Virus record (IMG/VR): IMGVR_UViG_3300016484_001516 | Coordinates: 1 to 55,019 of that record | DNA length: 55,019 nt | From: a virus | Lineage: Duplodnaviria > Caudoviricetes | Reading direction: 5' to 3' (one strand) | Part shown: positions 2,414-28,370 of the stretch, in pieces | Layout: each line of letters starts with the position of its first letter | Position numbering within the stretch: the stretch's first letter is position 1 | The notes under the pieces: model-generated | Database searches by the model: none | Seen by the model: only the letters and a program-made list of their open reading frames with translations | Told to the model about the DNA's origin: nothing | Translations under genes and position numbers: made by a program

Positions 2414-2632
2414 ATGCAACTACAAAGAGGCGATATAATGTGGGTATGCAAGCACTTTTCAGTAAGTAGGCAATATGTCAGATTACTGATTGAAGGGCAT
2501 CGCAAGCCAACGCGGGGCAAAGGACCCGCAATAATTGAATCGCTTACGAAACTCGGAGAAAGTCGAAATGAAATTATCAGAGTTTCGAAAGCAAATATAA
2601 GAAAAAGCACAAAACGAAATGTGAATCCATGA
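2414..2632 (+). CDS. Ner/Cro-like small HTH regulator
   Basis: 72 aa, HTH-like VCKHFSVSRQYVRLLIEG; position between repressor and transposase. Confidence 0.65.
   Translation: MQLQRGDIMWVCKHFSVSRQYVRLLIEGHRKPTRGKGPAIIESLTKLGESRNEIIRVSKANIRKSTKRNVNP
2602..2626 (+). promoter_or_regulatory. Internal copy of the terminal (transposase-binding) motif at the transposase start
   Basis: AAAAAGCACAAAACGAAATGTGAAT ends 2 nt before the transposase ATG. Confidence 0.7.
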
Positions 2633-4668
2633 AAATAATTAATTCCAAACCATACCTTGAATTTCAAGACCTCGTGGAAAAGGGCATTTCGGAAAACACA
2701 ATCAAGAATGCCATTTACAAGGGGACTTGGGAATCCGTAAAAGATGAGAAGGATAAACGCAAAATTCTAATCCCCTTCGATTCTATTCCTGCGGCAACTC
2801 AAAAAAAATTAGGGGGAATGGAAGGAGTTATTGCGGAAAAGAAGATAGCAGAGATAGTTAAACGATTGGCAACTAAGGAAGAGGATATTGAATTTTTCAA
2901 GAAGTCATTGGAAAATAGAGTGATAGCGGAGGTGGATATATATGATATTGCTACAAGCTACGCCTATTCGAAAAGCCTTATTGAACTCTACGAGGAATGC
3001 AAGAAAAATCACGATTATTCGCTTCTCATGGCTTCCTCCCGCGCTGAAGCACTTGTAATGATACTGAAGGTAGCTGAGAAAAAAGGCTATTGCGGACTAC
3101 AAATAACGCAGAGAGCATTGGACAATAAGATATCCGTAATACGAAAAAAGGGCTATGAAACGCTCATTTCTCACAAATTCGGTAACCAAAACACGAGAAA
3201 AGTTGATGATAAGCTTCTCGCCATACTTGGGGAATTATACTCGAATAGCAAGTTTAATGGTGCGAAATTATGTAGGGAACTCAATCGAAGATTATCAGAG
3301 CATGGAATGGATAGTGTTTCGGTAGCTACAGTGAGGCTATACTTGAAGGACAATGATTTTCAGATGACTTACTTGGCAGACAGGGATGGGAAAAGAGCTT
3401 GGCAGAATAAGTATGAGCCTAATATTTCAAGAAAACCACCTTCAAGAGCTGGAATGTTGTGGAATATAGATGGTACGCCAATCGAAATCTACATGAAATA
3501 TCAGAGGACAGACAAAAACGGCAATAAGGTGTGGACAGCAAAAAGATTGTATGCGGTATTTGTGACTGATGCTTATTCTTGGAAAATTGTCGGGGCGGGA
3601 ATCGTGAATGGGAATGAGAACCGAGAACTTATTATGGCTGCCATGAAAGATGCTATCTATAAGGAGGGGTACAAGCCGCATCAACTTCTGTACGACAATA
3701 CACGAGCAATAGGGGAAGAAATGGAAAATTGGATGCGCGAAATTGCCACACACGCCTTCCCTGCTGCGGCAGGAAATGCAAAAACGAAAGTAATTGAGCC
3801 TACTTTTAAGCATTTTTTCGAATCACAGGCTAAGGAATGGATTAACTTTTCAGGATTAGGAATCAAGTCTAAGCAATCAAGCTCTCATATCAACGAGGAA
3901 TTTGTGCGGAAAAACCTAATGAAATTCCCTGAAGAAGACGAGGCTATTAAGCAGATTCGGACAATGATTGAATCTTGGAACAACGACCCTCTCTCGGCAG
4001 GTCCACCGAAAAACAGAAATAAGGGCGGAGTTAGCCTTTCTGCGGAAAAAGCACACGAAAAAGGATTGCGCATGAGTCCCGCAGAAGCACACAAAAATAG
4101 CTTAGATGTCCACAGAGACGCACTTGAAGTATTCTCAATGGAAAGAAAAGTAGATTTATTTTGGGTGTGGAGGCTTAATGGAGACAAAAGACAGACTTAT
4201 ACGCCCACAAATGACGGAATATCAGTCACTTTCCCGAATGGAGAAAAAAGGAAATTCGAGATATACAGAGATGATATGAGCATGATGGAACAGTATATTT
4301 CTACAATTGGTAAGTCAGTTCACATCAAGTACGACCCCACAGATTATTCTATGATTGCGGTGTACTTAGGCGACAGATACCTTACGCTCGCAATGGAAAA
4401 AGAAGATATTCCGATGGCGTTAGGCGACATGAAAGAGGGAGATGGCGAAAAACGCCAAGCAAAACAAGAGAAAAAGAAAGCCTTAGTGAAAAAATCTAAG
4501 GAAAAACGCGAAGAAGCAAAAGACCTTGTAGCGGATATTATACGCCCCGAGGATGTTCTGAAAGGCGGTTTTGGCGCGACTACTTCTACTCACCACAAGG
4601 ACAGATTGAATGAGGCTGAGGACGAAATTAAGGCAGAAATATTTGATTTAAGCACAATATATAATTGA
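2629..4668 (+). CDS. Mu-like DDE transposase (MuA-like)
   Basis: Integrase core WNIDGT, VTDAYSWKIVG, LLYDN, KTKVIEPTF; C-terminal KYDPTDYSMIAVY Mu-type domain. Confidence 0.92.
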   Translation: MKIINSKPYLEFQDLVEKGISENTIKNAIYKGTWESVKDEKDKRKILIPFDSIPAATQKKLGGMEGVIAEKKIAEIVKRLATKEEDIEFFKKSLENRVIAEVDIYDIATSYAYSKSLIELYEECKKNHDYSLLMASSRAEALVMILKVAEKKGYCGLQITQRALDNKISVIRKKGYETLISHKFGNQNTRKVDDKLLAILGELYSNSKFNGAKLCRELNRRLSEHGMDSVSVATVRLYLKDNDFQMTYLADRDGKRAWQNKYEPNISRKPPSRAGMLWNIDGTPIEIYMKYQRTDKNGNKVWTAKRLYAVFVTDAYSWKIVGAGIVNGNENRELIMAAMKDAIYKEGYKPHQLLYDNTRAIGEEMENWMREIATHAFPAAAGNAKTKVIEPTFKHFFESQAKEWINFSGLGIKSKQSSSHINEEFVRKNLMKFPEEDEAIKQIRTMIESWNNDPLSAGPPKNRNKGGVSLSAEKAHEKGLRMSPAEAHKNSLDVHRDALEVFSMERKVDLFWVWRLNGDKRQTYTPTNDGISVTFPNGEKRKFEIYRDDMSMMEQYISTIGKSVHIKYDPTDYSMIAVYLGDRYLTLAMEKEDIPMALGDMKEGDGEKRQAKQEKKKALVKKSKEKREEAKDLVADIIRPEDVLKGGFGATTSTHHKDRLNEAEDEIKAEIFDLSTIYN

Positions 4669-4675: not shown

Positions 4676-5713
4676 ATGGAAATCATGCAAATCAGGGAGA
4701 GAGTATATGATGCGGTGAATAGCCTAATCAATACCAAAAAATACTCCCCACAGCAATTAGCTACACACCTGAGCATTAGTACAGCTAATATCAGTCTGTT
4801 GAAAAACAGAAAAGCCGACAAAATGGCGGATAAAACATTCATTCTGCTATATAATAACCCAGTTTTGGGGATTGTTAGGCAACAAATTATAGAAACGCCT
4901 AACTTCAATCAAATCGTGAAGATTGCGAAGCATTGTATTGAAGAAGGAAGTAAGAAGTTAGTCTATGGGCGCACAGGTTTCGGGAAAACAACAGTATTGA
5001 AGCACATTATGAGTTCGGGCGTATTAGGAGGGAACTGCTTTTACCTCCTCTGCAACAAAATGATGAGTAGAAAACGCTTCGTAATTGCCCTTGCGGACTC
5101 AATGGGCATAAAAACCCAAAGAAAAGTAACTTCTACGAATAAGTGGAAAGACCGTTCAGAAGCGGATATTTTTGAAGAAATTATCGAAAAATTGATGAAC
5201 AGCGACAATGCCCTGCTAATGTTTGATGATGCGGGTAAGTTGAAAAACGCTTGTCATGAGGCAATTCAGATAATTGAAGACCGCACCAAGGGAATGGTTG
5301 GCGTACTTCTCACCTACACTGACCAGTATTTCTACGAAAAATTGCAGCGAATGAATAGCGGAGAAATCAGAAGTTGGATAGGATTTCCTGAGTATTTCTC
5401 CCGCTTCACCTTCATTCAGAAGCTGTATGGACCCTCCGAAAAAGATGTAGAGCTACTGTGCGAGAAGGAAGGAATAGGACAGCACTTCGAAAAGGTAATG
5501 AATACAATCAAGGTTACATTCGGAGATAAGGATTCCAAGCAAAAGCCAAAAGAATCTGATGCCGCTTATAATTCGCGTATTGCGCAATGCAAGTGGAGCG
5601 GTAATCCTGCGGAAAACGAAGTTGATTATAGGCAAATTACTGCTATAATCAGCAACATTATAAAAATTATTAATCAAGATTCACAAACTAAACAAACGCA
5701 AAACAATGGCTAA
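4676..5713 (+). CDS. MuB-like AAA+ transposition ATPase
   Basis: N-terminal HTH, Walker A GRTGFGKT, Walker B LLMFDD, FSRF arginine finger; follows the transposase. Confidence 0.88.
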   Translation: MEIMQIRERVYDAVNSLINTKKYSPQQLATHLSISTANISLLKNRKADKMADKTFILLYNNPVLGIVRQQIIETPNFNQIVKIAKHCIEEGSKKLVYGRTGFGKTTVLKHIMSSGVLGGNCFYLLCNKMMSRKRFVIALADSMGIKTQRKVTSTNKWKDRSEADIFEEIIEKLMNSDNALLMFDDAGKLKNACHEAIQIIEDRTKGMVGVLLTYTDQYFYEKLQRMNSGEIRSWIGFPEYFSRFTFIQKLYGPSEKDVELLCEKEGIGQHFEKVMNTIKVTFGDKDSKQKPKESDAAYNSRIAQCKWSGNPAENEVDYRQITAIISNIIKIINQDSQTKQTQNNG

Positions 5714-6381: not shown

Positions 6382-6556
6382 ACACAAGAAAGTCTATGAG
6401 AAGTATATCCAACTGTCCTCCGAAAGTGTTCGTAGGGGAAACAAGATATACAAAATTCCCGAAGACGAGATATTAGCCATGTTGGGAGAAGAGTTCTACT
6501 ATACTCCCGAAACAGTAAAATCAATCATATATAAGCAGAAAAAAAATGTTCGGTAA
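6347..6556 (+). CDS. Mor/C-like small transcription activator (HTH)
   Basis: C-terminal ILAMLGEEFYYTPETVKSIIY; follows the GemA-like gene as in Mu. Confidence 0.5.
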   Translation: MSNAKKEITANRHKKVYEKYIQLSSESVRRGNKIYKIPEDEILAMLGEEFYYTPETVKSIIYKQKKNVR

Positions 6557-7073
6557 CAACTATACTCCCTCAAAAGCTACAGCAAAAGTTATTAGCGTAG
6601 ATAAGTCTAAAATGACTTGCACTTGCAAGCCTACCGAAGGCGCGACCATGCAAGGTATATTATTGACTGCTCGCCAACATGATGCGGATTTTGTGGGCAG
6701 CGTAAATATTCCGAAAGTAGGTAGTATGGTTGTGATTGATGAAGTTCCGCATGGCTTCGCAGTCGTGGAAACTGAAGAACTCAGCGAAATATTGATTGTT
6801 GGCAAGGGCTTCAAATGGGAATTTCGCATTGATACGGGTGAGGTGGTAATGAATGATGGCAACAATGGCGGCATTATAATCACGCCAAAACTTGTCAGCC
6901 AACTGAACAAAATCAACCTGTTCATTGACATTTTCAAATCTGTATTGGCTACGCCAATTACTGAAGCGGGTAATGGCGCACCGAGTTCATTCCAAGCTGC
7001 TTTGAATGCGGCATACACAAGTTTTCAAAACCCTGACTATCAGGGCATAAGCAATGATAAATTCAAACATTAA
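6546..7073 (+). CDS. Baseplate spike (gpV/Mu gp45)-like protein
   Basis: OB-fold-like AKVISVDKSKMTCTCKP...IPKVGSMVV, then VVMNDGNNGGII...LVSQLNKI and terminal NDKFKH; the tail module lacks this gene at its usual place. Confidence 0.65.
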   Translation: MFGNNYTPSKATAKVISVDKSKMTCTCKPTEGATMQGILLTARQHDADFVGSVNIPKVGSMVVIDEVPHGFAVVETEELSEILIVGKGFKWEFRIDTGEVVMNDGNNGGIIITPKLVSQLNKINLFIDIFKSVLATPITEAGNGAPSSFQAALNAAYTSFQNPDYQGISNDKFKH

Positions 7074-7081
7074 GTAAAAGC

Positions 7082-7375
7082 ATGGAAGGATTACGCAAAC
7101 TAAGAAATTTTTTTCAAGACAATTGTATTTCACAGGAAGAAATGCTTGTACTGTCCATTATTAATGAAAATCCAGCCATTAGAATGGCGGATATAAAAGA
7201 GAAAGTGGATAGAGTGCCGAGTTCAATAACGGTTATCGCGGATAAGTTGGAGAAACTGAAATTGCTAAAACGCCAACATTGCAACCAAGACCGCAGGTCT
7301 GTCCGCGTAAAAATTACGAAAGAGGGAATTGAATTATTGGATAAATTCAAAAATGAGTTTCCGAATTTGGGCTAA
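7082..7375 (+). CDS. MarR-family winged-HTH regulator
   Basis: SSITVIADKLEKLKLLKR...DRRSVRVKITKEG signature. Confidence 0.85.
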   Translation: MEGLRKLRNFFQDNCISQEEMLVLSIINENPAIRMADIKEKVDRVPSSITVIADKLEKLKLLKRQHCNQDRRSVRVKITKEGIELLDKFKNEFPNLG

Positions 7376-7383
7376 GCCCTGCA

Positions 7384-7481
7384 ATCGCATTAGCTCAATG
7401 GTAGAGCGGCTAAACGTGAAATTATTAAACCAATTTCTATTTTTCGGAAGCAGGTAGGGGGTTCGAATCCCCCATGCGATT
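7384..7481 (+). ncRNA. tRNA-like RNA with expanded, non-canonical anticodon arm
   Basis: Acceptor ATCGCAT/ATGCGAT, D-arm GCTC-AATGGTA-GAGC, T-arm GGGGG-TTCGAAT-CCCCC; anticodon arm 43 nt instead of 17. Confidence 0.75.
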
Positions 7482-7505
7482 CTTCCATTATCAAATAACA
7501 AATTT

Positions 7506-7862
7506 ATGGGGCAAAGTGAAAAAACATCATTAGAGATATTCCTAGAGCAACGGGCGACAGGAGTAAATCAAAGTTGGCTTCCCAAAGCGACATTTTCAGC
7601 AATGCAAAATCTTGGACTAGCAGCGCAAAACATATCTAATAAGATTGTGGCTGCCGCTGAAGTAATCACAGAAAACTTTCCCATTGACGCTTTTGCTGAG
7701 TCGGAAAGAGTTCTTGAAATAGACAATGAAATGCAGGAAGTAGAAATAGCTCTGCGGAGCGGCACACACTTCCAACCCGCACACATCTCGGCACTTCGCC
7801 AAAAGCTGCGGGACTTGGAAAGTGAAAAAGAAGAATTAATTCATTTATTATCAAACACTTAA
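7506..7862 (+). CDS. Hypothetical protein (C-terminal coiled coil)
   Basis: 118-aa ORF in operon, ends LSNT. Confidence 0.7.
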   Translation: MGQSEKTSLEIFLEQRATGVNQSWLPKATFSAMQNLGLAAQNISNKIVAAAEVITENFPIDAFAESERVLEIDNEMQEVEIALRSGTHFQPAHISALRQKLRDLESEKEELIHLLSNT

Positions 7863-7866
7863 ATTT

Positions 7867-8307
7867 ATGGGAACTAAAAGAGATATGAACGGAACTGCGT
7901 ACAATCTAATCAATGAGATGGCTGTGTACGCTGCTGATTTAATTTTACAGGGAAAAGTAGCGGAAAATAATGTATTTCTAATCACATCCTCTAATGAGGA
8001 AAAATTAGAAAACCCACAATTCGAATTATTGGAAGACAAAGACATTACTAACGTTAAGGATAATGAGCTGTCGAAAGCTTTTTCGGCAAACAAAAAAAAT
8101 ACATCTTCCAACATTATATACTTACATGAATGGGATGGTTTTATGGAGATGGCGAAAATTAGCCTTAAAAAGAGAAAGTTGCTTTCGCTTACGATTTATT
8201 CCACAGACGATAATAAACGTCCAGTTTGCATAGGTGTTCATGGCGATAATGCAGAAATAATATTCGATTCACATAAGGGAGTAATAGCATCATTATCAAA
8301 CACTTAA
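7867..8307 (+). CDS. Hypothetical protein
   Basis: 146-aa ORF in operon, ends LSNT. Confidence 0.7.
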   Translation: MGTKRDMNGTAYNLINEMAVYAADLILQGKVAENNVFLITSSNEEKLENPQFELLEDKDITNVKDNELSKAFSANKKNTSSNIIYLHEWDGFMEMAKISLKKRKLLSLTIYSTDDNKRPVCIGVHGDNAEIIFDSHKGVIASLSNT

Positions 8308-8310
8308 ATT

Positions 8311-8490
8311 ATGGCAACCTACGAAGGGCAAATATTAGAAAATGTTTCCCACTACCAAAAAGTAAAAAAACTTTTGGAAGGGCGAAAAGATAGAGAGGCT
8401 ATCGAAATGATAATACACTGCAACACTACAATCGCAGAATATAATCAGTTCGAGGGAGAAGATTGGGAAGAAGATTCGGAGGAAGAATAG
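8311..8490 (+). CDS. Small acidic hypothetical protein (59 aa, not in ORF track)
   Basis: MATYEGQILEN...WEEDSEEE; starts at the third junction motif. Confidence 0.6.
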   Translation: MATYEGQILENVSHYQKVKKLLEGRKDREAIEMIIHCNTTIAEYNQFEGEDWEEDSEEE

Positions 8491-8577
8491 GAAGAAACCG
8501 AATCCATACCCAAATTCACCAAGTTCAGCATATTATCTCTTATTCAAGAAGAGGAACTTGATTGAGCAACCAACTAT

Positions 8578-8673
8578 ATGAACACAATTATCATTCACTT
8601 AGGGGGCGGAGAGGAAGAACAAGGTCAGAGTAGTTCCGACACAACTCCCAATCCGAACCCCACAAAACCTTAG
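8578..8673 (+). CDS. Possible 31-aa peptide
   Basis: MNTIIIHLGGGEEEQGQSSSDTTPNPNPTKP; stop 3 nt before the gam ATG. Confidence 0.35.
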   Translation: MNTIIIHLGGGEEEQGQSSSDTTPNPNPTKP

Positions 8674-8676
8674 ATT

Positions 8677-9198
8677 ATGGCAAAAAAAAGAGCAACAGTT
8701 TCCTTCGAGGAACAAGAAAAAGCCGCCCAAGCTGCCATGCAGCAATTTGATGAGGCTGTTTCAAAAAAGGCAAAGTTAGTTGGGCAGATGGACGAGGAAT
8801 TGAACGCTGTCCGAGAAAAGTATGCAAGTGAAGTCAATGATTGCGACAACATTATTGCGGAAAAGGAGAAAGAGCTGAAAGAGTTTGCGAAGAAAAACCC
8901 GCAGTTATTTGAAGGAAGAAAGACTTTCGCGCTCGTGCATGGTACAGTTGGATTTAGAACGGGAACACCAAAAGTGAAATTCCTTTCGGGTTGGAATGAA
9001 GAAAGCATCTTAGATGCAATCCAAAAAACGCCTCTTGCATCTTATGTCGTTACGATGGAAAAGATTGATAAAGAAGGTATTATCCGAGATAGAGATAATT
9101 TGAAGGTGGAAGATTTGGCGAGGGTAGGAATGTCGGTGGTGCAAGATGAAAAAATACACGTCATTCCTGCTTCGGCAGCAGAAAACACGAAAAATTGA
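8677..9198 (+). CDS. gam: Mu Gam-like host-nuclease inhibitor (DNA end protection)
   Basis: Long N-terminal helix then RKTFALVHGTVGFRTGTPKV...EKIDKEGI...VGMSVVQDE. Confidence 0.88.
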   Translation: MAKKRATVSFEEQEKAAQAAMQQFDEAVSKKAKLVGQMDEELNAVREKYASEVNDCDNIIAEKEKELKEFAKKNPQLFEGRKTFALVHGTVGFRTGTPKVKFLSGWNEESILDAIQKTPLASYVVTMEKIDKEGIIRDRDNLKVEDLARVGMSVVQDEKIHVIPASAAENTKN

Positions 9199-9290
9199 GG
9201 TAAAATTGTTCAAGTGTGTAAACGGGGAGCATTGATGAGAGATTAATGCTCCCAATTGAAAAAAGAATCACCCAAAAAAATTAAAAAAAG

Positions 9291-9455
9291 ATGAGTAAAG
9301 TAAAAAAATGCCCAAACTGCCAAAAGGAATGGACAGAGGAAGAAATCAAATATCAAGAATGTAACGATTGTTGGTATCCCAATTTCGAACCTGATGAATC
9401 CGAAACGGACTACTACCCAATGGATGGCGGGTGGTTGGATATAGAGGAAGATTGA
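9291..9455 (+). CDS. Small zinc-ribbon protein (54 aa, not in ORF track)
   Basis: CPNC...CNDC pairs, acidic tail. Confidence 0.6.
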   Translation: MSKVKKCPNCQKEWTEEEIKYQECNDCWYPNFEPDESETDYYPMDGGWLDIEED

Positions 9456-9529
9456 GTTATTGAAATGGGATTCTATTGGCACTCAATAGAATCCCAAAAT
9501 AAAAAGAATCACTAATAAATAATTTAAAA

Positions 9530-11893: not shown

Positions 11894-12550
11894 ATGGAGA
11901 ATAAAGGGCAAAAACACTTTTGGACAGAGGAGGAAAAAGCATATTTGATTGAAAAGTATGCGGACACTCCAACGAAAAAAATAGCGGAGCATCTTGGAAT
12001 AAGTATCAGCAAAATATATTGGTACGCCAACAATATTGGACTGAAAAAGTCCAAAGAATGCATCGCGCAAACCTCGAAAGAAAACATATCTGAATCTTTT
12101 ATGTACAGCGGCAAAGGTCGCATCCCCCACAATAAGGGCGTTCCCATGAGTGAGGAAGCCTACGAAAAATGTAAACACACATTTTTCAAAAAGGGGCAAA
12201 AGCCGCATAATACGAAAGAGGCGGATGGAGAGATAGTTGTGAGGAGGAATAATGGTTGGAAGACGCTGTGGATTAGAGTGGAGTTAGGGAAATGGGAACA
12301 ACTTCATAGGTGGGTATGGAAACAGGCAAACGGGGAAATACCCAAAGGAAGCGTAATCGCTTTCATTGATGGAGACTCGATGAACTGCGACTTAAGAAAC
12401 TTAAAAATGATTTCCCGTGCGGATAATATGAGAAGGAATTCGATTAATTATCTGCCGCAAGAAATAAAAGATATACTGCACGTAAAAGCAGCGTTCCAAA
12501 GAAAACTAAACACGATAATAAAAAGGTATTATGGCAAAACCAAAAATTGA
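11894..12550 (+). CDS. HNH_3-type endonuclease with N-terminal WTEEE repeat domain
   Basis: FWTEEEKAYL, FKKGQKPHN, LHRWVWKQANGEIPKG...FIDGDSMNCDLRNL..ISRADNMRRN. Confidence 0.8.
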   Translation: MENKGQKHFWTEEEKAYLIEKYADTPTKKIAEHLGISISKIYWYANNIGLKKSKECIAQTSKENISESFMYSGKGRIPHNKGVPMSEEAYEKCKHTFFKKGQKPHNTKEADGEIVVRRNNGWKTLWIRVELGKWEQLHRWVWKQANGEIPKGSVIAFIDGDSMNCDLRNLKMISRADNMRRNSINYLPQEIKDILHVKAAFQRKLNTIIKRYYGKTKN

Positions 12551-13976: not shown

Positions 13977-15008
13977 ATGGCATTAGATTTCACAAACACA
14001 ACAATCCGCATCGCTTCGGTGCATCAGATTGGCAACAAGTCGCGGGGAGAGGAGATTGTATTTTCCAAAGCTCCCCTCAACATTGAGGGCGACCACATTC
14101 ACGCACTATTAATGATGTACTTCCTTTCCCCTTTTCGCGGAGAAGATTTGTACAATTTTTCGCGGGAAGATGGTGGTAATGCGATTTTTGCTCATAGCGA
14201 GAGCATTTTTAGAGATGTGGAACAGCAAAATTTTCATTCAGTTTCGATTAGCATTGCAAACCTTCTGTATGAAGCAGCTGCGAACAAGCCCAAAAGCAAA
14301 TCAGGCGAGTTGTATGTCGTTTATTTTGAAGGCGTTATACTTGACGATGAGGAAGTTAGCGCAGTAGGTATTTTCAAATCTGATGCTTGGGACACTTATT
14401 TGAAGGTGGAGGTTGATGGACAAATTAACCAAGCCAACTTTCATATTAATCACGACAAAGGCTTAAATATCAACAATTTGGATAGGGGCTGCCTTGTACT
14501 TAATACGGAAAGAGATAATGGTTTTGTGGTAGCGTGTTTTGATAATTCCTCCTCTACTCTTTGGAAAGAAGATTTTCTCCAACTAAAAGAACGTGCGGAC
14601 AGCTATTCATTCACAAAGAATTATCTTGAATTATCTAGCGGCTTTATGGTTGCGGAAGACCCAATTGAGCAAATCAACAATACCCAACGGCTAATTGACT
14701 ATTTCAAATCGAATAAAAACTTTGATGCGCAGGTATTCGGGGAGGAAGTGATTATTGATGATGATAAAATGAAGTTTTTAGATGGGAAAAAACAACTTGT
14801 TGAGGAGGAAAAGGGAATCCAAATCCCACCATCTTTTGAGATTAATCCCAAGGCGGTGAAGAAATTCAAGTTGCAACCGCAAAAAACGATTCAACTTGAC
14901 AATAAAGTGACCATAACCGTTACAAATCCAAACGTTATCATTAAACGCGGCTTTGATGAGGTTGCGGGACAAAAGTTCTATCAAATTTATTATGATAACG
15001 AAAAGTAA
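13977..15008 (+). CDS. Nucleoid-associated protein, YejK/NA37 family (Bacteroidota type)
   Basis: VHQIGNKSRGE, YFLSPF, KSGELYVVYF, AVGIFKS, GLNINNLDRGCLVLN, WKEDFL, IQLDN...GFDE...FYQIYYDNE. Confidence 0.8.
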   Translation: MALDFTNTTIRIASVHQIGNKSRGEEIVFSKAPLNIEGDHIHALLMMYFLSPFRGEDLYNFSREDGGNAIFAHSESIFRDVEQQNFHSVSISIANLLYEAAANKPKSKSGELYVVYFEGVILDDEEVSAVGIFKSDAWDTYLKVEVDGQINQANFHINHDKGLNINNLDRGCLVLNTERDNGFVVACFDNSSSTLWKEDFLQLKERADSYSFTKNYLELSSGFMVAEDPIEQINNTQRLIDYFKSNKNFDAQVFGEEVIIDDDKMKFLDGKKQLVEEEKGIQIPPSFEINPKAVKKFKLQPQKTIQLDNKVTITVTNPNVIIKRGFDEVAGQKFYQIYYDNEK

Positions 15009-17570: not shown

Positions 17571-18116
17571 ATGGAAATTGTAAAAAAAGCATGGAAAGTG
17601 TGGGTGGACAATGACGAGTTCAATGGCTACCCATACTACGGAAACATAGAAGAACTGCCCACAGTCCATGCAGACTCGGCAGGATTGGCAAAGAAGAAAT
17701 GTGAGTTTAGCTATGATCATTTCACCGAAATACGGAGCAAACGCCATAAAGATGACGATATTGTAATGTTTGAAGGACACGAAATGAGATATTCAAGTGC
17801 AAATCAGATAATTGCGGACAGAAAGAAAAGGGCGGAGAGAATGGAAAAGATACTGCAATTTCCCGAAGATGCACTTTTCTATGTGCAATGTTCGCATGAA
17901 CGTTATATAGGCAACTCAGTAAATTTATGGGCTATTAACGGGAAAGGATATACTATAAATCCTGACAAAGCCCAAAAATACACGCGGCAGGAGATTATGA
18001 CTGATTTCATTGAAAAGGATAGTGATTGTACTTTTTGGGAAGCAAGCCATTTTGAGAGCAAAATCTCTAAACACGTGGATGCGCAGTATTTGGATTTTGC
18101 GTTTGCAGTAAGATAA
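17571..18116 (+). CDS. Conserved hypothetical phage protein
   Basis: FYVQ...YIGNSVNLWAINGKGYT..PDKAQKYT. Confidence 0.7.
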   Translation: MEIVKKAWKVWVDNDEFNGYPYYGNIEELPTVHADSAGLAKKKCEFSYDHFTEIRSKRHKDDDIVMFEGHEMRYSSANQIIADRKKRAERMEKILQFPEDALFYVQCSHERYIGNSVNLWAINGKGYTINPDKAQKYTRQEIMTDFIEKDSDCTFWEASHFESKISKHVDAQYLDFAFAVR

Positions 18117-18152
18117 AAAAAGAGGGCGCAAGATATGCTTGCCCCTCTTTTT
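18116..18152. terminator. Bidirectional intrinsic terminator ending the early operon
   Basis: AAAAAAGAGGG-CGCAAG...CTTG-CCCCTCTTTTT. Confidence 0.75.
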
Positions 18153-18161
18153 GTTTGGAAA

Positions 18162-18437
18162 TCAAAGTTGCTCTTTCCTAAATTTAATGATTTCAGTTAT
18201 CAAATTGGCAACTTTTAGCATAATATCCACAACTATCAAAGCATTTAGATGCACTGTTGCGTGCTGAATAGTTATTGCTATGGATATGATTCTCAATCCT
18301 ACACCTACAAGTTTCAAGGCATTTGACTTACTTTTAATTTGCCAAATTTTGATTATCGTTTCTGCGATAATTACCGAAATGCGTAGGTTGCTTTCCAATC
18401 CTATTGGATTTTTGAAAAATTTTATGATTTTTTTCAT
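18162..18437 (-). CDS. Small hydrophobic hypothetical protein (moron)
   Basis: 91 aa, Ile-rich with repeated LR/KI..I..II segments; minus-strand TACATTTG promoter element at 18725-18732. Confidence 0.45.
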   Translation of the reverse strand: MKKIIKFFKNPIGLESNLRISVIIAETIIKIWQIKSKSNALKLVGVGLRIISIAITIQHATVHLNALIVVDIMLKVANLITEIIKFRKEQL

Positions 18438-18438
18438 A

Positions 18439-18485
18439 AAAAATATAATAAATTTAAAAATATAATAAATTTAAAAATACAATAA
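18439..18485. repeat. 17-bp tandem repeat (~2.7 copies)
   Basis: AAAAATATAATAAATTT x2 plus a partial copy, in the leader of 18162-18437. Confidence 0.6.
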
Positions 18486-19076
18486 TATCTACCCCGACTA
18501 TTTTACAATAGTCGACCACCTCAATATAATTGAGTTATTGTTATTACCTTTTTAGGAGGATTCTCCGTTTCCATTTCATGTTAGTGAGCAGGCAGCTAAA
18601 AGATTTTTGATGCATCTTTCATTATCTGACTCCTATTTTTTGTGTGGTGGAGCGCGTTCTGTTTTTATGTTTGTCATGATAAAATATTGATAGATGATAT
18701 ATTTTTTTAATTAAAAATCTTGCACAAATGTACTAATAGACCTTGTAGATTGTATTTTTTGCCATTTTTTGCTCAATTTTTAAATATTACGCTCGTTGGT
18801 CGAAAAAGATATTTTACATATTTTCGTTTTCTTTGAAGTAGATTTACCACAAATATATATTGATATATTCTAGCTTTTACAAATCACATAATTTTTTAAT
18901 TAATTGATAATCATGTAATTATATATTATTTTTTTGCTATTGGTAAGAAAACCCCAAAAAAAATATCAAAAAATATTTAGCCGCATTTTTCAAAGATAAA
19001 AATTCACGTATTTTTGCTCGGAACGAGATTGGCGAATTTTTATGAATTTATTTATGCGTATGCGTCAATGTTCAAT

Positions 19077-19254
19077 TAGGCAACCTGTTTGAAAAATGGT
19101 GGAAATACTTGCTGGAAGTCGTAATCCTTGCCTTGTGTGGTCGTTACATTACATGTATTAAATAATAGGCAACTTGTTTGAAAAATAGCGAAAATACTTG
19201 CAAGAAATCGTAACCCTTAGCCTCTGTGGTCGTTACATTGCATATATTAAATAA
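19077..19254 (+). promoter_or_regulatory. 89-bp tandem duplication carrying ECF-like promoter copies 2 and 3
   Basis: TCGTAATCC...TCGTTAC at 19119-19147 and TCGTAACCC...TCGTTAC at 19208-19236. Confidence 0.75.
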
Positions 19255-19271
19255 TTAACAATCAATAAATT

Positions 19272-19604
19272 ATGCAAAATATACCGAATACATACTGGGT
19301 TAGACACTTCTTAATTTGTAACAATATCGCCAAAAATGTATGCAAAGGGTTCGGATTGGATATAGCGAATTTTGCAAGCGTAATAGAAAAAGAGCAAAAT
19401 GGCATGGAGGGAAATTTTCAAATGACACGCTTCTTTTGGGCTGCGGACATGACAATAAGCGAAGCAACACAAAGCGAAATCGGAATGGTATTTGAAGCCT
19501 TAGAGGAGGAAGATGAAATTGAAATCCAAACCCTAGCGCGATTAACGGAGCAGGAAATTGCGCAACTATATAGTGAGTATGTTATAGGGCGTGTGGTTAT
19601 ATAA
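19272..19604 (+). CDS. Small acidic hypothetical protein
   Basis: 110 aa, Glu-rich C-terminal half; own promoter and terminator. Confidence 0.7.
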   Translation: MQNIPNTYWVRHFLICNNIAKNVCKGFGLDIANFASVIEKEQNGMEGNFQMTRFFWAADMTISEATQSEIGMVFEALEEEDEIEIQTLARLTEQEIAQLYSEYVIGRVVI

Positions 19605-19647
19605 AAAAAACTTCGCAGTCGCATTTAAGCGACTGCGAAGTTTTTTT
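19604..19647. terminator. Bidirectional intrinsic terminator
   Basis: AAAAAAACTTCGCAGTCGC...GCGACTGCGAAGTTTTTTT. Confidence 0.85.
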
Positions 19648-19648
19648 G

Positions 19649-20317
19649 TTAAACGAATAAATTTACCTTATATCTAGTATTGAACTTATCTTTTATTACT
19701 TGGGATAATTTTAGTTCTCCCAATTCCGACATTTTCACTTTTATCAATCCTCCCTTTACCTCATTTACTGTTTTTCTGCCAACCTTTTTTGGCACATTAG
19801 CAACTGCATAAAAACAAAACTCCCCCGTTTCGATTAAATAATATAATTCTCTAAAATAATCGGGCATCCAATCCTCATACCTTTTGCGGTTGGCAACAAC
19901 TTTGTTTTCCCGATTTTCTATCCTTACCGCATAGCCGCAGGAAAAACCATCTTTACTATAAAAGCCCTCTTTAAATGACTGTATCTTTTTAATATCCCGT
20001 TTCGCCGTCCCTACATTTATCTCTTTAAGTATTCCCTTTACCTTGGTCGCTATTTTTATTTCGGAACAAAGAAAATATTTATTTGTTCTCATAATAGTAA
20101 TGTCGGGTTTTACCGTTACGGGTAAAAACTGTAAATTGTGACTAAGATATATTTGTAAATTTGCGTATCCATCAATAGTAGGGCGCAGGTGATGGTAAAA
20201 AGAAGCACGACAGTCTTCTTCTATTTCTATTCTATCAAGTTTGTAATCTTCTATTGTGTGCCTAAAAGCATCAATAAAAGCAACTTCTAATGTTTTTAGA
20301 TGTAGTGTTGTTTTCAT
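19649..20317 (-). CDS. Predicted PD-(D/E)XK nuclease
   Basis: EEDCRASFYHHL helix, KPDITI, SEIK, RDIKKI. Confidence 0.6.
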   Translation of the reverse strand: MKTTLHLKTLEVAFIDAFRHTIEDYKLDRIEIEEDCRASFYHHLRPTIDGYANLQIYLSHNLQFLPVTVKPDITIMRTNKYFLCSEIKIATKVKGILKEINVGTAKRDIKKIQSFKEGFYSKDGFSCGYAVRIENRENKVVANRKRYEDWMPDYFRELYYLIETGEFCFYAVANVPKKVGRKTVNEVKGGLIKVKMSELGELKLSQVIKDKFNTRYKVNLFV

Positions 20318-20504
20318 TTATGTTTGTTAATTAATCATAGGGAAATTTGTACGACCACACTTAATAAATGTTTTAGCATTTATAAAAATTATTATAAATG
20401 AATTATTAATAATTCAGAAAATAAAAAATAATGTACTAATAATCAAACTAATACGGATTAAATTTTATTTTTAATCCAACAAATGAATAACAACATACAT
20501 ATAT

Positions 20505-20540
20505 AAAAGAGGGGAGCTGCTATTGCAACTCCCCTTTTTT
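20505..20540 (-). terminator. Intrinsic terminator after the Shedu operon
   Basis: AAAAGAGGGGAG-CTGC...GCAA-CTCCCCTTTTTT. Confidence 0.65.
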
Positions 20541-20757
20541 ATATGTGGTTATTTTCACTTAAAACTTTTTGCAGTTTCTGATAGACCTCCGCCCAAGTTT
20601 TCCCGTAAGTTCCATAACTAGCTGCTTTACTATCGCTCCTATAACAAATGCCCTTTTGTTCGTCTGTCTCAACCACAATTTCAAGATAGGCTTCCTCTTG
20701 TCTTGAATACGGTTTTAGCATATTAGGCACAGACTTTAAAAATTCGCTTTTAGTCAT
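20539..20757 (-). CDS. Small hypothetical protein downstream of Shedu
   Basis: 72 aa, 12 nt after the sduA stop. Confidence 0.65.
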   Translation of the reverse strand: MTKSEFLKSVPNMLKPYSRQEEAYLEIVVETDEQKGICYRSDSKAASYGTYGKTWAEVYQKLQKVLSENNHI

Positions 20758-20769
20758 TTGGTAAAATAT

Positions 20770-22044
20770 TTATTGTTTCAAAATAGATTGTAGGCTCTCT
20801 ATCTTTTGCTGCAATTCATCAAATGTAAGTATTTCCACATCCTTACTATTGCTTCTGTATAACTCAAAAGAGTGCTGTTGGTTTTTATCCAAACCTTTCA
20901 ATGAACCGACCAAAACAACACATTTAGAGTTGAAGGATTCAAAACCTCCGCGCTTTCCTTCGCTTTTAACCTTTAAACTATAAAATTCTTTTTGAAAATT
21001 ATCCCTCTGATTTAAGACTTGAACTACGCAACCCGTCAATTCTTTACTAGCACAAAATACATCTTCTCCCCTATAAGCATTCTTTTCAATCAATTTTGTT
21101 TTATGCGTTTTTATTTCTAAAAATGAAATGTTATTGCTTAGTTTATTCTTAATGAGAAAATCATTAAACTTACCATTTTGATTATCAATGCATTTGCCAC
21201 CTACATAGGCTTCTCTTTTGAATAAAATTATCGGTTGTGCAAATATTGAAGAGAAAATCCAACTATTTTCGTTCAAAAATTCCTGCCATTGTTTTTCCAC
21301 GCTTTCGGTTTCGTTTTTCAATGCCATAAGAGATTTGTATTTTATCAATGTTTCTTGAATATATTTTGTATCAATTATCTCTTTTGTTTTTGCAAGAGCC
21401 TCTATATTTAAAAAATCCGAGCCAAGCGATAATTTTTCAAATAAACTTTTAATGGCATTTTTATCATCTTCGGAAAATTCATCTATACTATTCCCCCAAG
21501 ATGCCAATGAAACAGCCAATGTATTTGGGGTATAAATGCCTGTTTCTTTCGCAACGATAGTTGGAAATAATGAATGGAGAAGAGTTTTTGTAGTGAAAGC
21601 AATATCCGCTTTTTGCTTCTTATATACTGCACTAAATGTGTCATTTAGTAATTTTAATGCTTCTTCATTCAAATACAATACTTTATTTGCTAAATCCAAC
21701 TCGGTTTTACCCTTTCTCTCAATAAATACTTCTTCAATGTCAAAATTTTCGTTAACATAGTAACTAAATGGGTTCAACGTTTTTGTGAAGCCCCAACCAT
21801 AAGAAACAGATTTTATTACGCCAACAGGGAGGTTTTTGTTATCCTTATATCCTTTATAAACAAATTTTCTGATGGTTCTATACTTCTCGCCACCTTCATA
21901 TCCACGCGGATAATGAACAATTATACCTGTTTTTTTATGTACCTCATGGGATATTTGTTTTATGCCAGCGGCACTATCATAGTAGTAACAAACCTTTTTT
22001 CCCAATCCATCGGCTTCAATTTTTTCTCCTTTAAATTCTTCCAT
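20770..22044 (-). CDS. sduA: Shedu anti-phage nuclease (DUF4263)
   Basis: EKQWQEFLNENSWIF, REAYVGG, DFLIK, FLEIKTH, YR, ELTGCVVQVLNQR, ILTFDEL. Confidence 0.88.
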   Translation of the reverse strand: MEEFKGEKIEADGLGKKVCYYYDSAAGIKQISHEVHKKTGIIVHYPRGYEGGEKYRTIRKFVYKGYKDNKNLPVGVIKSVSYGWGFTKTLNPFSYYVNENFDIEEVFIERKGKTELDLANKVLYLNEEALKLLNDTFSAVYKKQKADIAFTTKTLLHSLFPTIVAKETGIYTPNTLAVSLASWGNSIDEFSEDDKNAIKSLFEKLSLGSDFLNIEALAKTKEIIDTKYIQETLIKYKSLMALKNETESVEKQWQEFLNENSWIFSSIFAQPIILFKREAYVGGKCIDNQNGKFNDFLIKNKLSNNISFLEIKTHKTKLIEKNAYRGEDVFCASKELTGCVVQVLNQRDNFQKEFYSLKVKSEGKRGGFESFNSKCVVLVGSLKGLDKNQQHSFELYRSNSKDVEILTFDELQQKIESLQSILKQ

Positions 22045-22469
22045 AAAATTAAATATTGTAACTTAATTCCAAGTTATTAATGACAACAAAGGTGGTCGAG
22101 GTCAACAGAGTCGTTATAGTATGCTCTTTTGACAAGAACAAAAATAAATTATTATTTAACAATATACAAATATTTATAATATATTAATTATTTTTAATAT
22201 CAAAAAATAAGAATAATGTACTAATAATCAAACTAATACGAATTAAATAAATTTCTCATTTATGCTTCATAAATAAAAGGTCATTAAATTTTTTTTATTT
22301 TTTTGTAAAATCAAAAGAAAGCATATTATATTTGTGGCGGAAGCCCCGTTACTATTTTTATCAATGGTAATAAACAACATTAAGCAATTTTTTGAAATAC
22401 ATTTAAAAATTGTTTAGGGGTTTGTTTTTATTTAAAATAATACAATATATTTGTAAATCCTTATCCATT

Positions 22470-22976
22470 ATGACAGAGAACGATATTAAAGAAGACATTT
22501 CGAGAGGTTATATCGGGCTTATAGCCAGCCGAGCAGGTTTTTATCCTGTGGAAAGTAAGAGAGATAATGGTATTGATGTTCGTTACACTAAGACTTTGCC
22601 CAGAACAGGTAGAGGTCATGTTGAACAAACTCTTTATATTTGTTTACAACTAAAAGCAACTACCGAAAAAAGAGTTTCCATTACGGATAAAGAGATAAAA
22701 TACTCGTTAGAGGCAAAAACATACAACGATTTAGTAACCACAGCAGGAGGATATCAACCAATAATTTTGATATTGTTTGTTCTTCCCGAAAATAAAGATG
22801 AGTGGGTGATAGTAAAGAATAACGAAATGGTGGTGCGGAAATGCGCTTATTGGTTTAAAATAGATGAAAACGAAGAAATCACAGATAATGATTCTGCTAA
22901 AACTATCGCTATACCCAAAATAAACTTAGTTGATTTAAATTTTTTCCCTAAAATCTATAATGCACTTCAAAACTAA
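22470..22976 (+). CDS. DUF4365-family PD-(D/E)XK nuclease
   Basis: RDNGIDV, LQLKATT, YSLEAKTYNDL, PIILILFVLP, RKCAYW; TATATTTG elements at 22327 and ~22446. Confidence 0.78.
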   Translation: MTENDIKEDISRGYIGLIASRAGFYPVESKRDNGIDVRYTKTLPRTGRGHVEQTLYICLQLKATTEKRVSITDKEIKYSLEAKTYNDLVTTAGGYQPIILILFVLPENKDEWVIVKNNEMVVRKCAYWFKIDENEEITDNDSAKTIAIPKINLVDLNFFPKIYNALQN

Positions 22977-24034
22977 TGAGCCTAAAAGTAAAAAATATAA
23001 GGTCTTTTCTTGAGCATCGTGGTTGGAAGCTTGTTAGAAATGGAAGTAGTATTGTTGAATACAAGCCTCCAAAAGGATTGGGCATTTCAGAAGGCTATCT
23101 TTTTCAAGTGCCTGTAAACGAGCATAAAAAAGGCTTCGATGATTTTGTTAAACGACTGATAAACATTCTTGTAAATATCTATGAAGATGAATTTACAGAA
23201 GATGATTTGATGATAATATTTTCATCTGATAATTCTATACTTAGTTTTAGAATTTCGGATAATGATACTCAACATGGTAGCATAAAATTGTCAAGGGTGC
23301 GAACAAACATTGATGGTATTTATAAGGTTTTGCAGCAAATTGTGACTTTTATCAGCACAGGAAAACCAATATTTGGTAGCGCAAAGAAAGAAGTAGGTTC
23401 TTATTTGGATAGTTGCCGTTATCTACAAACACAAAAAGGAAGTTTTATAACTAAATTTGAGCTACCTCTAATACCTGTAAATATTTTAGAGCCATCTATT
23501 GTAGCGGATAAGCTTTTTTACATTTTGGACTTTATAGTGGAAGAAGCAATCAATAAAGATATATTAGAAATTGATAATAATTATATCGAAGAACATAAAG
23601 ATTGTATAAATGTAGAACTTTTTATCGCAATCCATAATGTCTTTAAAATGGTAAAGTTTTCCAATGCTAGTTTGGCACTCTTAAATCAAACGCAAACAAA
23701 AAAGTTTGATATGCAACAGATTAATAAGAAAATTAATCATTTTGGAGAATTTACCAAAAGAGTGAAAGACCTTTTGTTGGAAGATGTTCCTTTGGAGGCA
23801 ATCGGGTTTGTTTATAACTTACATTCCAATGACCCCAAAGCATCGGGAGAAGTTAGTATTCAGGCTGAAATAGCAAATGAAAAGCATATTATAAAGGTGT
23901 TTTTGAAAGATGAGAATTATGGATTGGCGATAGAAGCGCACAAACTCGGTAGAAATGTTCGCATAAAAGGTATCGCAAAGCAAGCAAAAGAAAATTATTA
24001 TATCAAAGAAGCGGAGGAGTTCGAATATGCCTAA
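22976..24034 (+). CDS. Uncharacterised DUF4365 partner with probable C-terminal OB-fold
   Basis: Translationally coupled; FLEHRGWK N-terminus, QTQKGSFI, YGLAIEAHKLGRNVRIKG C-terminus. Confidence 0.7.
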   Translation: MSLKVKNIRSFLEHRGWKLVRNGSSIVEYKPPKGLGISEGYLFQVPVNEHKKGFDDFVKRLINILVNIYEDEFTEDDLMIIFSSDNSILSFRISDNDTQHGSIKLSRVRTNIDGIYKVLQQIVTFISTGKPIFGSAKKEVGSYLDSCRYLQTQKGSFITKFELPLIPVNILEPSIVADKLFYILDFIVEEAINKDILEIDNNYIEEHKDCINVELFIAIHNVFKMVKFSNASLALLNQTQTKKFDMQQINKKINHFGEFTKRVKDLLLEDVPLEAIGFVYNLHSNDPKASGEVSIQAEIANEKHIIKVFLKDENYGLAIEAHKLGRNVRIKGIAKQAKENYYIKEAEEFEYA

Positions 24035-24104
24035 AACGGTTCTATCTTGCATTAAAAGGTCAGTTGTTGATATAAAGATATCAAGTTCTTTATGTTTCTA
24101 TTGA

Positions 24105-24139
24105 AAAACACAGCCAATCACAATGATTGGTTGTGTTTT
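24105..24139. terminator. Bidirectional terminator between convergent nuclease genes
   Basis: AAAACACAGCCAATCA/TGATTGGTTGTGTTTT. Confidence 0.75.
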
Positions 24140-24251
24140 ATTTTTACGCCAACTCAATCTCATACCCATCCACCACATATCTGCAAACGAATTACTTATA
24201 AATTCCCGTTCTTCCCCTATTATCAAAAAATCGTTTTCGTGTAGTGTGGGC

Positions 24252-25349: not shown

Positions 25350-25602
25350 AAAAGTATTTCTAAATTTAATTGATAATATTAGTTGAATCGAATGTAAACC
25401 ATTAAACGTAAAACTAAAATAAAAGGTCTACATATATTTACTATTTTTATATTTTATAAAATTAAAAAGTCGAAGAGTGCGACTGCATAACGCGAACTTC
25501 TACCTCTTGTCCCTCCCCTAATACTTGTTCTAATAATGGGTTGATTGAAGTTAGATTTTTTTTGTACTACTTTTTTCATTGTATTTAGTTGATAATGAAC
25601 TG

Positions 25603-25863: not shown

Positions 25864-25902
25864 AAAAATTATACTTAAATGCTTGTTAATCAATTAAGTA
25901 AT

Positions 25903-26008
25903 GTAACGACACTTCCCGCCAATGGTTACGAATAATTGAGAGAAAAAAGAATTATTTATTTCGCAAAATAAATGCAAAAAGTCGTAACCTTTGCCCCCAC
26001 ATTCGTAA
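25903..26008. promoter_or_regulatory. Divergent pair of ECF-like promoters (copies 4 and 5)
   Basis: Minus TCGTAACCATTGG...TCGTTAC at 25903-25931; plus TCGTAACCTTTGC...TCGTAA at 25982-26008. Confidence 0.75.
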
Positions 26009-28352: not shown

Positions 28353-28370
28353 CAAGCAACCATAATTTTA

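Follow-up and report, generated by a model that had tools for sequence, protein, structure and literature searches.

An anticodon-less tRNA body in the early operon of a Mu-like phage

The virus contig IMGVR_UViG_3300016484_001516 of IMG/VR, a stretch of 55,019 nucleotides (nt) that was analyzed whole and is referred to here as the window, holds a real and unusual tRNA-derived element at positions 7384–7481. Its acceptor, D and T arms are intact, an AU-rich segment stands where the anticodon should be, and it lies in the early gene string of a Mu-like transposable phage. The element is retained in close relatives, and its design recurs in the early operons of the gut hankyphage and of Porphyromonas phages. 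By analogy, this recurrence suggests that such elements mark the sites at which tRNA-trimming enzymes cut the phage message.

The Rfam tRNA model RF00005 covers 7384–7481 of the + strand from end to end (model positions 1–71) at 48.1 bits, well over its gathering score of 29 (E = 2.8e-7 for the whole window). The only other Rfam match in the 55 kb window is an ordinary tRNA-Met at 28282–28352. A tRNA-shaped RNA had originally been predicted here from the letters alone, with perfect 7-bp acceptor, 4-bp D and 5-bp T stems, a TTCGAAT loop, and 37 nt enclosed by GCT...AGC in the anticodon arm. The Infernal match supports that prediction; Rfam, cmscan and our own parse agree on the coordinates, stems and loop, and cmscan places the 37 nt in the slot of the model's 11 central anticodon-arm positions. 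The parts of the element are:

7384–7390 (+): acceptor stem, 5′ strand (tRNA positions 1–7); 7/7 Watson–Crick pairs with 7474–7480 (cmscan alignment and own parse)
7393–7407 (+): D arm; stem 7393–7396/7404–7407, 4/4 Watson–Crick pairs; 7-nt loop
7409–7451 (+): non-decoding arm; closing stem of 3 bp (GCT/AGC, 7409–7411/7449–7451) around a 37-nt AU-rich insert, 7412–7448
7452–7456 (+): variable region, 5 nt (cmscan alignment)
7457–7473 (+): T arm; stem 7457–7461/7469–7473, 5/5 Watson–Crick pairs; loop TTCGAAT
7474–7481 (+): acceptor 3′ strand (7474–7480) and discriminator U7481; no CCA after it
7482–7505 (+): 24-nt spacer to the ATG of ORF118, carrying a junction motif (see below)

All 16 stem pairs are intact, as are the tertiary-contact bases; the D loop holds A14, G18, G19 and A21, and U8 is also in place. 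The whole element adopts a cloverleaf-like fold of −26.2 kcal/mol (z = −2.0; 7 of 200 shuffles were equally good). Every feature expected of an RNase P and RNase Z substrate is present, namely a 12-bp acceptor/T stack, an elbow of D and T loops, and a discriminator without an encoded CCA. The lack of CCA, also part of the original prediction, is true of the element though not diagnostic, since the phage's own tRNA-Met likewise lacks it and CCA letters occur near the 3′ end in at most 2 of the 28 tRNA genes of G001. This Bacteroidota metagenome-assembled genome (MAG) carries a related MuA gene and served as a stand-in for the host; it is incomplete and is not the host itself. With CCA-less tRNA genes usual in this lineage, 3′ trimming followed by CCA addition is the normal host route. 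The best isotype match of the element's exons was the tRNA-Thr(UGU) of G001, a weak one (score 22, against 14 for the next). Judged by sequence, the element is a tRNA-derived gene whose body appears nearest to a Thr-type tRNA of a Bacteroidota genome. Among other tRNA-like RNAs, no Rfam model of YrlA/Y RNA or transfer-messenger RNA matched the element, and ARAGORN made no transfer-messenger RNA call for it.

The anticodon arm cannot be restored to a standard form

The original prediction held that the element has no anticodon, and our analyses agree. ARAGORN in default mode did not call the element. We then enumerated every single excision within the arm and scored each product out of 7.5 for five pairs, U33, a purine at 37 and a pyrimidine at 32. 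None yielded a standard anticodon arm: the best product reached 5.5 with standard spacing, and 6.5 in a relaxed scan that allowed 1–3 bases before the stem and a variable region of 4–13 nt. Many insert-bearing tRNAs from metagenomes score 7.5 on the same scale. As the anticodon stem-loop has been replaced by the 37-nt segment, the element should be unable to read codons.

Folded on its own, the 43-nt arm reaches only −3.2 kcal/mol (z = −0.12), which 82 of 200 shuffles match. An inner GAAATT/AATTTC hairpin had been proposed for it. The two complementary halves do exist (7418–7423 and 7432–7437), but the minimum-energy fold leaves them unused and the arm as a whole is no more stable than shuffled sequence. 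It can best be viewed as an AU-rich loop of 37 nt that is mostly open.

Several kinds of intron or recoding were considered for the insert and rejected. When introns are allowed, ARAGORN reports a 20-nt intron at 31/32 in a tRNA(CUA). This form is non-standard: its stem has a U–C mismatch and is preceded by two bases, position 37 is U, and the variable region measures 10 nt. We rejected a suppressor tRNA of a recoded phage because the CUA form appears only with the intron option forced, is non-standard, and belongs to a phage without recoding: the window is 87% coding under code 11, TAG terminates 9 of 77 open reading frames (ORFs), and the longest ORF gains no length when a stop is read through. 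A bulge-helix-bulge intron of the archaeal/eukaryal type was rejected because the predicted fold has a 3×2 internal loop, a 2-bp helix and a 1×1 mismatch, which is no such motif, and because no excision leaves a standard arm. A search of the window and G001 for the splicing endonuclease (PF01974) found none in either record and detected all four archaeal controls; G001 does have an RtcB ligase gene. A group I intron is rejected on size, as the insert measures 37 nt against a ribozyme core of at least 200 nt, and no Rfam group I model matched. Beyond tRNA, an Rfam scan at E up to 1 gave a single weak and unrelated match. Comparison with the inserts of other tRNAs likewise gave nothing: a covariance model (R1) of a metagenomic insert family, run with filters off and E up to 10, gave 21 matches in the window and none at 7384–7481, and the best alignment score of the insert against 89 distinct sequences was 36, compared with a self score of 104.

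The element is embedded in a compact string of early genes

The carrier of the element is a Mu-like transposable phage of a freshwater Bacteroidota host. The contig has an estimated completeness of 66% and encodes, besides tail genes, the following:

2629–4668: MuA-type transposase (PHROG 310, 2.3e-50; rve and Mu-transposase C domains)
4676–5713: MuB-like ATPase
7082–7375 (+): MarR-family winged-helix gene, directly upstream of the element (Pfam MarR, 2e-13)
7369–7379 (+): small GC hairpin of 4 bp with a 3-nt loop, containing the stop codon of the MarR-like gene, 4 nt ahead of the element
7506–7862 (+): ORF118 (118 amino acids), directly downstream of the element
8677–9198: Mu Gam
33836–36421 (−): Mu portal fused to Mu F

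Phage relatives of MuA at 22–27% identity were found in 35 GenBank records, all from transposable phages of Bacteroidota (Bacteroides 19, Porphyromonas 10, unnamed gut phages 3, Winogradskyella 2, Elizabethkingia 1), and the sole genome match was a Bacteroidota MAG contig at 37% identity that ends just after MuA. The element begins 8 nt past the MarR-like gene and ends 24 nt ahead of ORF118, within an early gene string in which its neighbors are all on the + strand. No sigma-70-like promoter or terminator site adjoins it on that strand. A Bacteroidota-type promoter pattern matched the window 9 times, with 4.5 matches expected, and never between 2.4 and 18 kb. One of these matches directly precedes the tRNA-Met (59.3 bits), the full pattern ending 12 nt upstream of that gene (span 28238–28353). 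We infer that the element is transcribed within the early polycistronic RNA. The segment 7360–7383, folded alone, reaches −5.8 kcal/mol, and its GC hairpin could possibly provide the upstream mRNA with a structured 3′ end once it has been cut. Pfam scans of 50 ORFs revealed no RNA-processing enzyme (RNA ligase, endonuclease or nucleotidyltransferase). ORF118 matched no Pfam, PHROG or PADLOC family, and its Atlas model was poor.

Elements of the same design occur in hankyphage-type and Porphyromonas phages

A tRNA-model search of five distant Bacteroidota Mu-like phage records gave one match in each of three, in the early operon and on the MuA strand. For two of these matches cmscan skips the entire anticodon arm, which measures 15 and 27 nt instead of the usual 17, and ARAGORN is silent; the third scored 46.7 bits in the tRNA-model search, was unlisted in the follow-up cmscan, and is given by ARAGORN as a doubtful tRNA-Arg. 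By BLAST, elements were then found in 27 of the 35 GenBank records with a MuA match, 17 of the hankyphage type and 10 of the Porphyromonas type. The hankyphage-type elements fall into two sequence types (4 and 13 records) that are 85% alike; of the 17 elements, 4 are labelled tRNA-Arg and 13 are unannotated. The three Bacteroides records without the element stop no more than about 600 nt from the MuA match, which leaves no room for it. The Porphyromonas type was present in 10/10 Porphyromonas records (7 by full-length matches, 3 by the 3′ half), none of which annotates an RNA there. Overall, 23 of the 27 records have no RNA feature at the element.

In the seven elements that we parsed, the acceptor stem has 6–7 of 7 pairs, the D stem 4/4 and the T stem 5/5, and the stretch from D to T stem measures 21, 33 or 49 nt, compared with the normal 23. 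None encodes a CCA, a C follows the discriminator, and an ATG lies 14–28 nt downstream (24 nt in the window). Two long-arm Porphyromonas elements stand outside this parse and were read by eye and folded. The non-decoding arms in these other Bacteroidota phages measure 15, 27 or 64 nt.

In the hankyphage arm, a 3–4-bp proximal stem and an AAA bulge lead to a 4–5-bp distal helix. One type closes this helix with GCAA and the other with a 6-nt loop; their folds reach −13.3 and −6.9 kcal/mol (z = −3.5 and −2.3). The two types keep this one architecture through compensatory changes in the proximal stem. Porphyromonas phages carry the same tRNA body at the same spot, 14–16 nt upstream of MuA, with one of two arms: a 15-nt mini-hairpin in which differences are confined to the loop, or a 64-nt module of two hairpins (−20.6 and −18.7 kcal/mol, z = −2.7). 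The transposase coding sequence annotated in BK068094.1 (3111–5237) and that in BK068089.1 begin inside the tRNA look-alike; these starts are probably placed too far upstream, because other records begin MuA 14–16 nt past the element.

In the hankyphage the gene order is a small ORF, 10 nt, the element, 27 nt, an ArsR-family regulator, a small ORF and MuA. One Porphyromonas phage has a methyltransferase gene that ends 11 nt ahead of the element, and another has the element between a reverse-strand gene and MuA; wherever a same-strand gene is present upstream of these parallel elements, it ends about 10 nt away. From these sequences, the tRNA body appears conserved across lineages and the arm replaceable, with a gene start close behind.

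The window element belongs with the class of anticodon-less look-alikes that we propose for Bacteroidota transposable phages: it lies in a Mu-like early operon, on the same strand as the transposase, and an ORF starts no more than about 30 nt downstream. It shares with the hankyphage-type element of PV107405.1 (1767–1848) and the P. gingivalis phage element of PP754930.1 (3208–3278) the early operon, the MuA strand, intact acceptor, D and T arms, a non-decoding arm, the absence of an encoded CCA and the close ORF start; as in the hankyphage, a small winged-helix regulator gene lies beside it. We regard the class as one of design and not of demonstrated homology, because the element had no blastn match in 50,697 phage records and the position in the operon differs. 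The hankyphage element itself was absent from those Bacteroidota genomes that were searched from a sample of 401.

The element is retained in close relatives and in a mosaic block

Contigs from four other runs (three further studies) that are about 95% identical to the window span the element, and three of these runs are labelled freshwater metagenome. The relatives have no insertion or deletion anywhere in the element, arm included. One substitution is listed within it, at 7402 (T>C) of the D loop, where three of the four relatives have C, and the 24-nt spacer behind the element has two substitutions and a 3-nt insertion. A 5.4-kb contig from run X6 has only 7024–7874 in common with the window (the MarR gene, the element and ORF118) and differs on both flanks, and the match from run X7 ends at the same right-hand point. 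These breakpoints indicate that the three move together, and the block 7024–7874 looks like a mosaic module.

More remote relatives were seen by protein only, with MuA at 76% identity and one homologue of ORF118 at 64%. Protein-guided scans with MarR, MuA (alone or as a four-sequence alignment) and ORF118 found no match in the viral contig collection and only one Bacteroidota MAG contig among the genome contigs. Of three DNA patterns for the element applied to viral contigs, two gave nothing and the third an ordinary jumbo-phage tRNA-Ser. The pattern scan of metagenomes demanded T at 7402 and was blind to the relatives, three of four of which have C there; it gave other insert-bearing tRNAs, with inserts unlike that of the window. 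Positions 6500–9500 gave no blastn match among GenBank phages.

Processing by host tRNA enzymes is the favored explanation

RNase P, RNase Z and the CCA-adding enzyme recognize the acceptor/T stack, the elbow and the discriminator, and the anticodon arm is needed only for decoding and by most aminoacyl-tRNA synthetases. The parts retained in the element are those that the processing enzymes recognize, which makes tRNA-style punctuation the most economical mechanism. We therefore lean towards the view that RNase P and RNase Z excise this non-decoding tRNA body and thereby punctuate the early mRNA. In this scheme the element would be co-transcribed in the long early operon, and the host RNase P would make the 5′ cut. 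The 3′ cut, by RNase Z or an activity equivalent to it, would be followed by CCA addition; both cuts are expected from the retained acceptor/T stack, D/T elbow and CCA-less discriminator. The early message would thus be split between the MarR-like gene and the small genes that follow, leaving the ORF118 message with a 24-nt leader and releasing a tRNA-shaped RNA of about 98 nt. An RNase P/Z processing signal was among the functions first suggested for the element, and it is now the best supported of them: the intact body, the place in the operon and the recurrent layout all favor it, and the cleavage is what they lead us to infer. The other two suggestions were a decoy for anticodon nucleases, which found no support, and a carrier that displays a loop, which is taken up below.

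A number of observations weigh against this scheme. Bacterial RNase P prefers U(−1)/G(+1), and the element has A at both positions. The elements of the three phage lineages are alike only in generic tRNA features, and the window element comes after MuB where the others precede MuA; with no common sequence and a different place in the operon, the elements may be independent acquisitions and the analogy may fail. Set against PV107405.1 and PP754930.1, the window element also has an unfolded arm, at shuffle level, unlike the hankyphage and long Porphyromonas arms (z = −2.3 to −3.5), and decay would also fit an unstructured arm. Among close relatives, 1 of 98 listed sites changed in the element and 26 of 582 in its flanks, which is not significant (one-sided Fisher p = 0.08) and is provisional, as 50 of the 90 differences lie outside the list and may include sites in the element; relatives that are about 95% identical are in any case too close to reveal selection. 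The 18 runs listed include no RNA data set.

Decay is the core of one alternative, in which an old phage tRNA gene lost its anticodon arm through insertion or replacement and survives as a relic, with no selected role and with RNase P/Z cutting perhaps as a side effect. The missing anticodon, the shuffle-level arm, the roughly 5% divergence of the known relatives with no significantly lower substitution rate, and the presence in this phage of a separate ordinary tRNA-Met with its own promoter all agree with it. A relic should hardly keep all 16 stem pairs and its tertiary-contact bases, however, nor sit between 8-nt and 24-nt spacers in a compact gene string, persist in mosaic relatives with different flanking genes, or have counterparts in two other lineages whose anticodon-less design is kept in 27 records with compensatory arm changes, and we consider this account unlikely. 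We judge about equally unlikely that the tRNA body stabilizes and displays the 37-nt loop as a regulatory RNA or protein-binding site, a scaffold or sponge of which a decoy for tRNA-binding defense proteins is a sub-case. The arm is largely unpaired, so the loop would be exposed; arms vary between lineages on a constant body, as expected of a cargo; the element travels with the MarR-like gene and ORF118 as one block; and engineered tRNA scaffolds operate in this way. Yet a 16-nt loop sequence has no complementary target in the window, the likeness of the loop to a nearby junction motif is at chance level (both below), ORF118 belongs to no recognizable RNA-binding family, and the anticodon loop that anticodon nucleases require of a decoy is absent.

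It is very improbable that the element is a functional tRNA interrupted by an insert of the ‘enigmatic’ kind known from Lak megaphages and removed by some unknown route, for example to the CUA form. Such a tRNA could draw on the ARAGORN solution, on the RtcB gene of the stand-in host, on the tRNA introns described in PMC6784885 for phages of a Bacteroidota host, and on the frequency of small anticodon-arm inserts in viral and metagenome contigs, many of which restore a standard arm on excision. Here no excision does so, the CUA solution departs from the standard (U–C mismatch, U37, 10-nt variable region), the insert-family covariance model misses the element, neither the window nor the stand-in host genome encodes a splicing endonuclease, and there is no group I match and no sign of recoding. 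Least credible to us is a site that acts as DNA, with the insert serving as operator of the MarR-like protein or as a weak promoter (a TA..TTT box) for the downstream genes inside an old tRNA gene. The insert does contain a perfect 6+6 palindrome with an 8-nt spacer and adjoins a winged-helix regulator gene, and one of its 8-mers has 7 of the 8 letters of the Bacteroides −7 consensus. The palindrome is not repeated, though: GAAATT-N8-AATTTC has no second exact copy in the window, where near-matches are at chance level (19, with 14.6 expected). The insert holds no full Bacteroidota-type promoter pattern, and a DNA site would leave the intact tRNA body and the parallel phage elements unexplained.

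Beyond excision by RNase P and RNase Z, a wider generalization can be put forward as a possibility, albeit a doubtful one. Bacteroidota transposable phages, among them the globally common hankyphage and the phages of P. gingivalis, may share an RNA device in which an anticodon-stripped tRNA body draws in the host enzymes that process tRNA ends to cut early transcripts at a fixed distance before a gene. Its arm would be an exchangeable cargo stabilized by the scaffold, as nature's equivalent of the engineered tRNA-scaffold method; the window would then hold a member with an unstructured AU-rich cargo.

Relation to known tRNA-like RNAs

Non-decoding tRNA-shaped folds within longer transcripts are known from mammals, where in MALAT1 (mascRNA) and MEN-beta such a fold is cut by RNase P and RNase Z and receives a CCA. 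The tRNA fold and the degenerate anticodon arm are common to these and to the window element; those are eukaryotic nuclear long non-coding RNAs, non-homologous to it, and their cleavage has been demonstrated, whereas cleavage here would follow from the fold. Murine gammaherpesvirus 68 also encodes tRNA look-alikes, the vtRNAs/TMERs, which host tRNA enzymes mature without aminoacylation and which set the ends of neighboring RNAs. They differ in being animal-virus Pol III units with downstream microRNAs and in retaining an anticodon-like arm. The use of tRNA folds as RNase P/Z cut sites in polycistronic RNA has its precedent in mitochondrial ‘tRNA punctuation’ and in tRNAs co-transcribed with mRNA; those are working (or degenerate mitochondrial) tRNAs, and the window fold lacks the decoding part and belongs to a phage. 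In phages P1/P7 (C4) and P4 (CI), RNase P cuts a small immunity RNA from a longer early transcript. These RNAs are not full cloverleaves and are antisense to phage targets, and no antisense target was found in the window.

Within phages of Bacteroidota, a comparable description is that of Devoto et al. 2019 (PMC6784885), which reports ‘enigmatic’ tRNA introns in Lak megaphages of Prevotella and states that phage tRNA introns had not been reported earlier. Both cases involve Bacteroidota-host phages, short inserts in the anticodon region and no known bacterial route for their removal; by that description, the Lak introns leave an identifiable anticodon after removal, which the window element does not. 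In the accessible part of Matrishin et al. 2023 (PMC10367356), on P. gingivalis phages, tRNA genes are mentioned only as insertion sites, and the word ‘tRNA’ was not found in the portion covered of a hankyphage study with strand-specific RNA-seq of the induced phage (PMC12135933). Searches of the literature on tRNA-like decoys, phage RNase P processing, BV01/hankyphage and P. gingivalis prophage tRNAs, judged mostly by titles and the opening of abstracts, gave no published account of such elements.

Junction motif, loop and leader sequences

The small genes that start at 7506, 7867 and 8311 follow one another and have leaders nearly alike over 20–25 nt, reading ATTATCAAA...AAATT(T)ATGG. Their copies lie at:

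7484–7510: shared leader before the first small gene
7839–7871: shared leader before the second
8292–8317: shared leader before the third

This likeness suggests duplicated gene heads or a common translation-start signal. The loop of the element had been thought to resemble this junction motif. The motif is real, but its likeness to the loop (9 of 10 letters) is at chance level, since 5.7% of 7,700 genome windows do equally well. A search of the window for sites complementary to the 16-nt loop found no antisense target: there were three matches with at most 3 mismatches, where 2.27 were expected, and none on the opposite strand.

Other unusual tRNA loci in metagenome contigs

Our searches also turned up other tRNA genes with altered anticodon arms. 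One family carries a structured insert of about 42 nt in the 5′ strand of the anticodon stem, between about positions 28 and 31, at these loci:

L064: 3259–3319
L096: 141–201
L039: 55–112
L035: 561–618
L055: 844–902
L052: 1295–1351
L008: 3148–3204
L029: 6644–6700
L030: 1847–1900 and 1622–1679

The insert consists of an A-rich lead, a 7-bp hairpin (7/7 pairs, with compensatory changes) and an AU-rich tail, and C.GC is invariant within its CAGCAA box. Excision gives a standard arm with the anticodons GGU, UGU, GUU, UAU, UCA or AUU. Model R1, built from 12 members, gave 14 matches in 13 of the 100 loci searched. Several members lie within tRNA arrays, and 8 IMG/VR contigs, including one labelled a giant-virus MAG, contain a 17-nt motif of the family.

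Three further groups were seen. L005, L014, L041, L053, L080 and others combine a UAU anticodon loop with a 17–21-nt stem-loop variable arm and an encoded CCA, an unusual pairing of class-II shape and Ile-type anticodon. L022, L024, L042, L048, L050 and L081 have the 5′ part of one tRNA gene followed directly by a complete second gene whose T arm and acceptor close both, a tRNA-in-tRNA or overlapping arrangement. Finally, L020/L095, L071/L098 and L065/L085/L094 are look-alikes with long rod-like or multi-hairpin arms that no single excision returns to a standard arm, each on two or three separate contigs.

Other genes of the window

Outside the early gene string, a low-GC island at 18000–26000 (30–32%, against about 39%) contains 5 of the window's 9 Bacteroidota-type promoter matches, at 18.6–22.5 kb. 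Since both a Shedu gene and the candidate system PDC-M02 lie in it, the phage carries a defense island. The genes concerned, and accessory genes elsewhere, are:

20770–22044 (−): Shedu gene SduA (PADLOC, 1e-72), within the low-GC island
22410–22976 and 22976–24034: both genes of candidate defense system PDC-M02, within the low-GC island
695–1678 (−): amidoligase_2 family protein, near the left end (7.4e-50)
11894–12550: HNH_3 endonuclease, early-region accessory gene
13977–15008: homologue of a 37-kDa nucleoid-associated protein, early-region accessory gene

Implications

The recurrence of the design in well-known Bacteroidota transposable phages gives the finding weight and makes it testable with existing material. 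The hankyphage is inducible in a laboratory Bacteroides strain, and, according to PMC12135933, strand-specific RNA-seq of its induction in B. thetaiotaomicron jmh43 is public (ArrayExpress E-MTAB-14274). For annotation, such loci are overlooked, or are called tRNA-Arg or an intron-bearing suppressor tRNA by programs that force an anticodon. If the proposed processing is true, temperate phages of a major phylum of gut, oral and freshwater bacteria would shape their early transposase and regulator messages through the tRNA processing of the host, a layer of early-message control of which phage Mu has no known example and the records examined carry no annotation.

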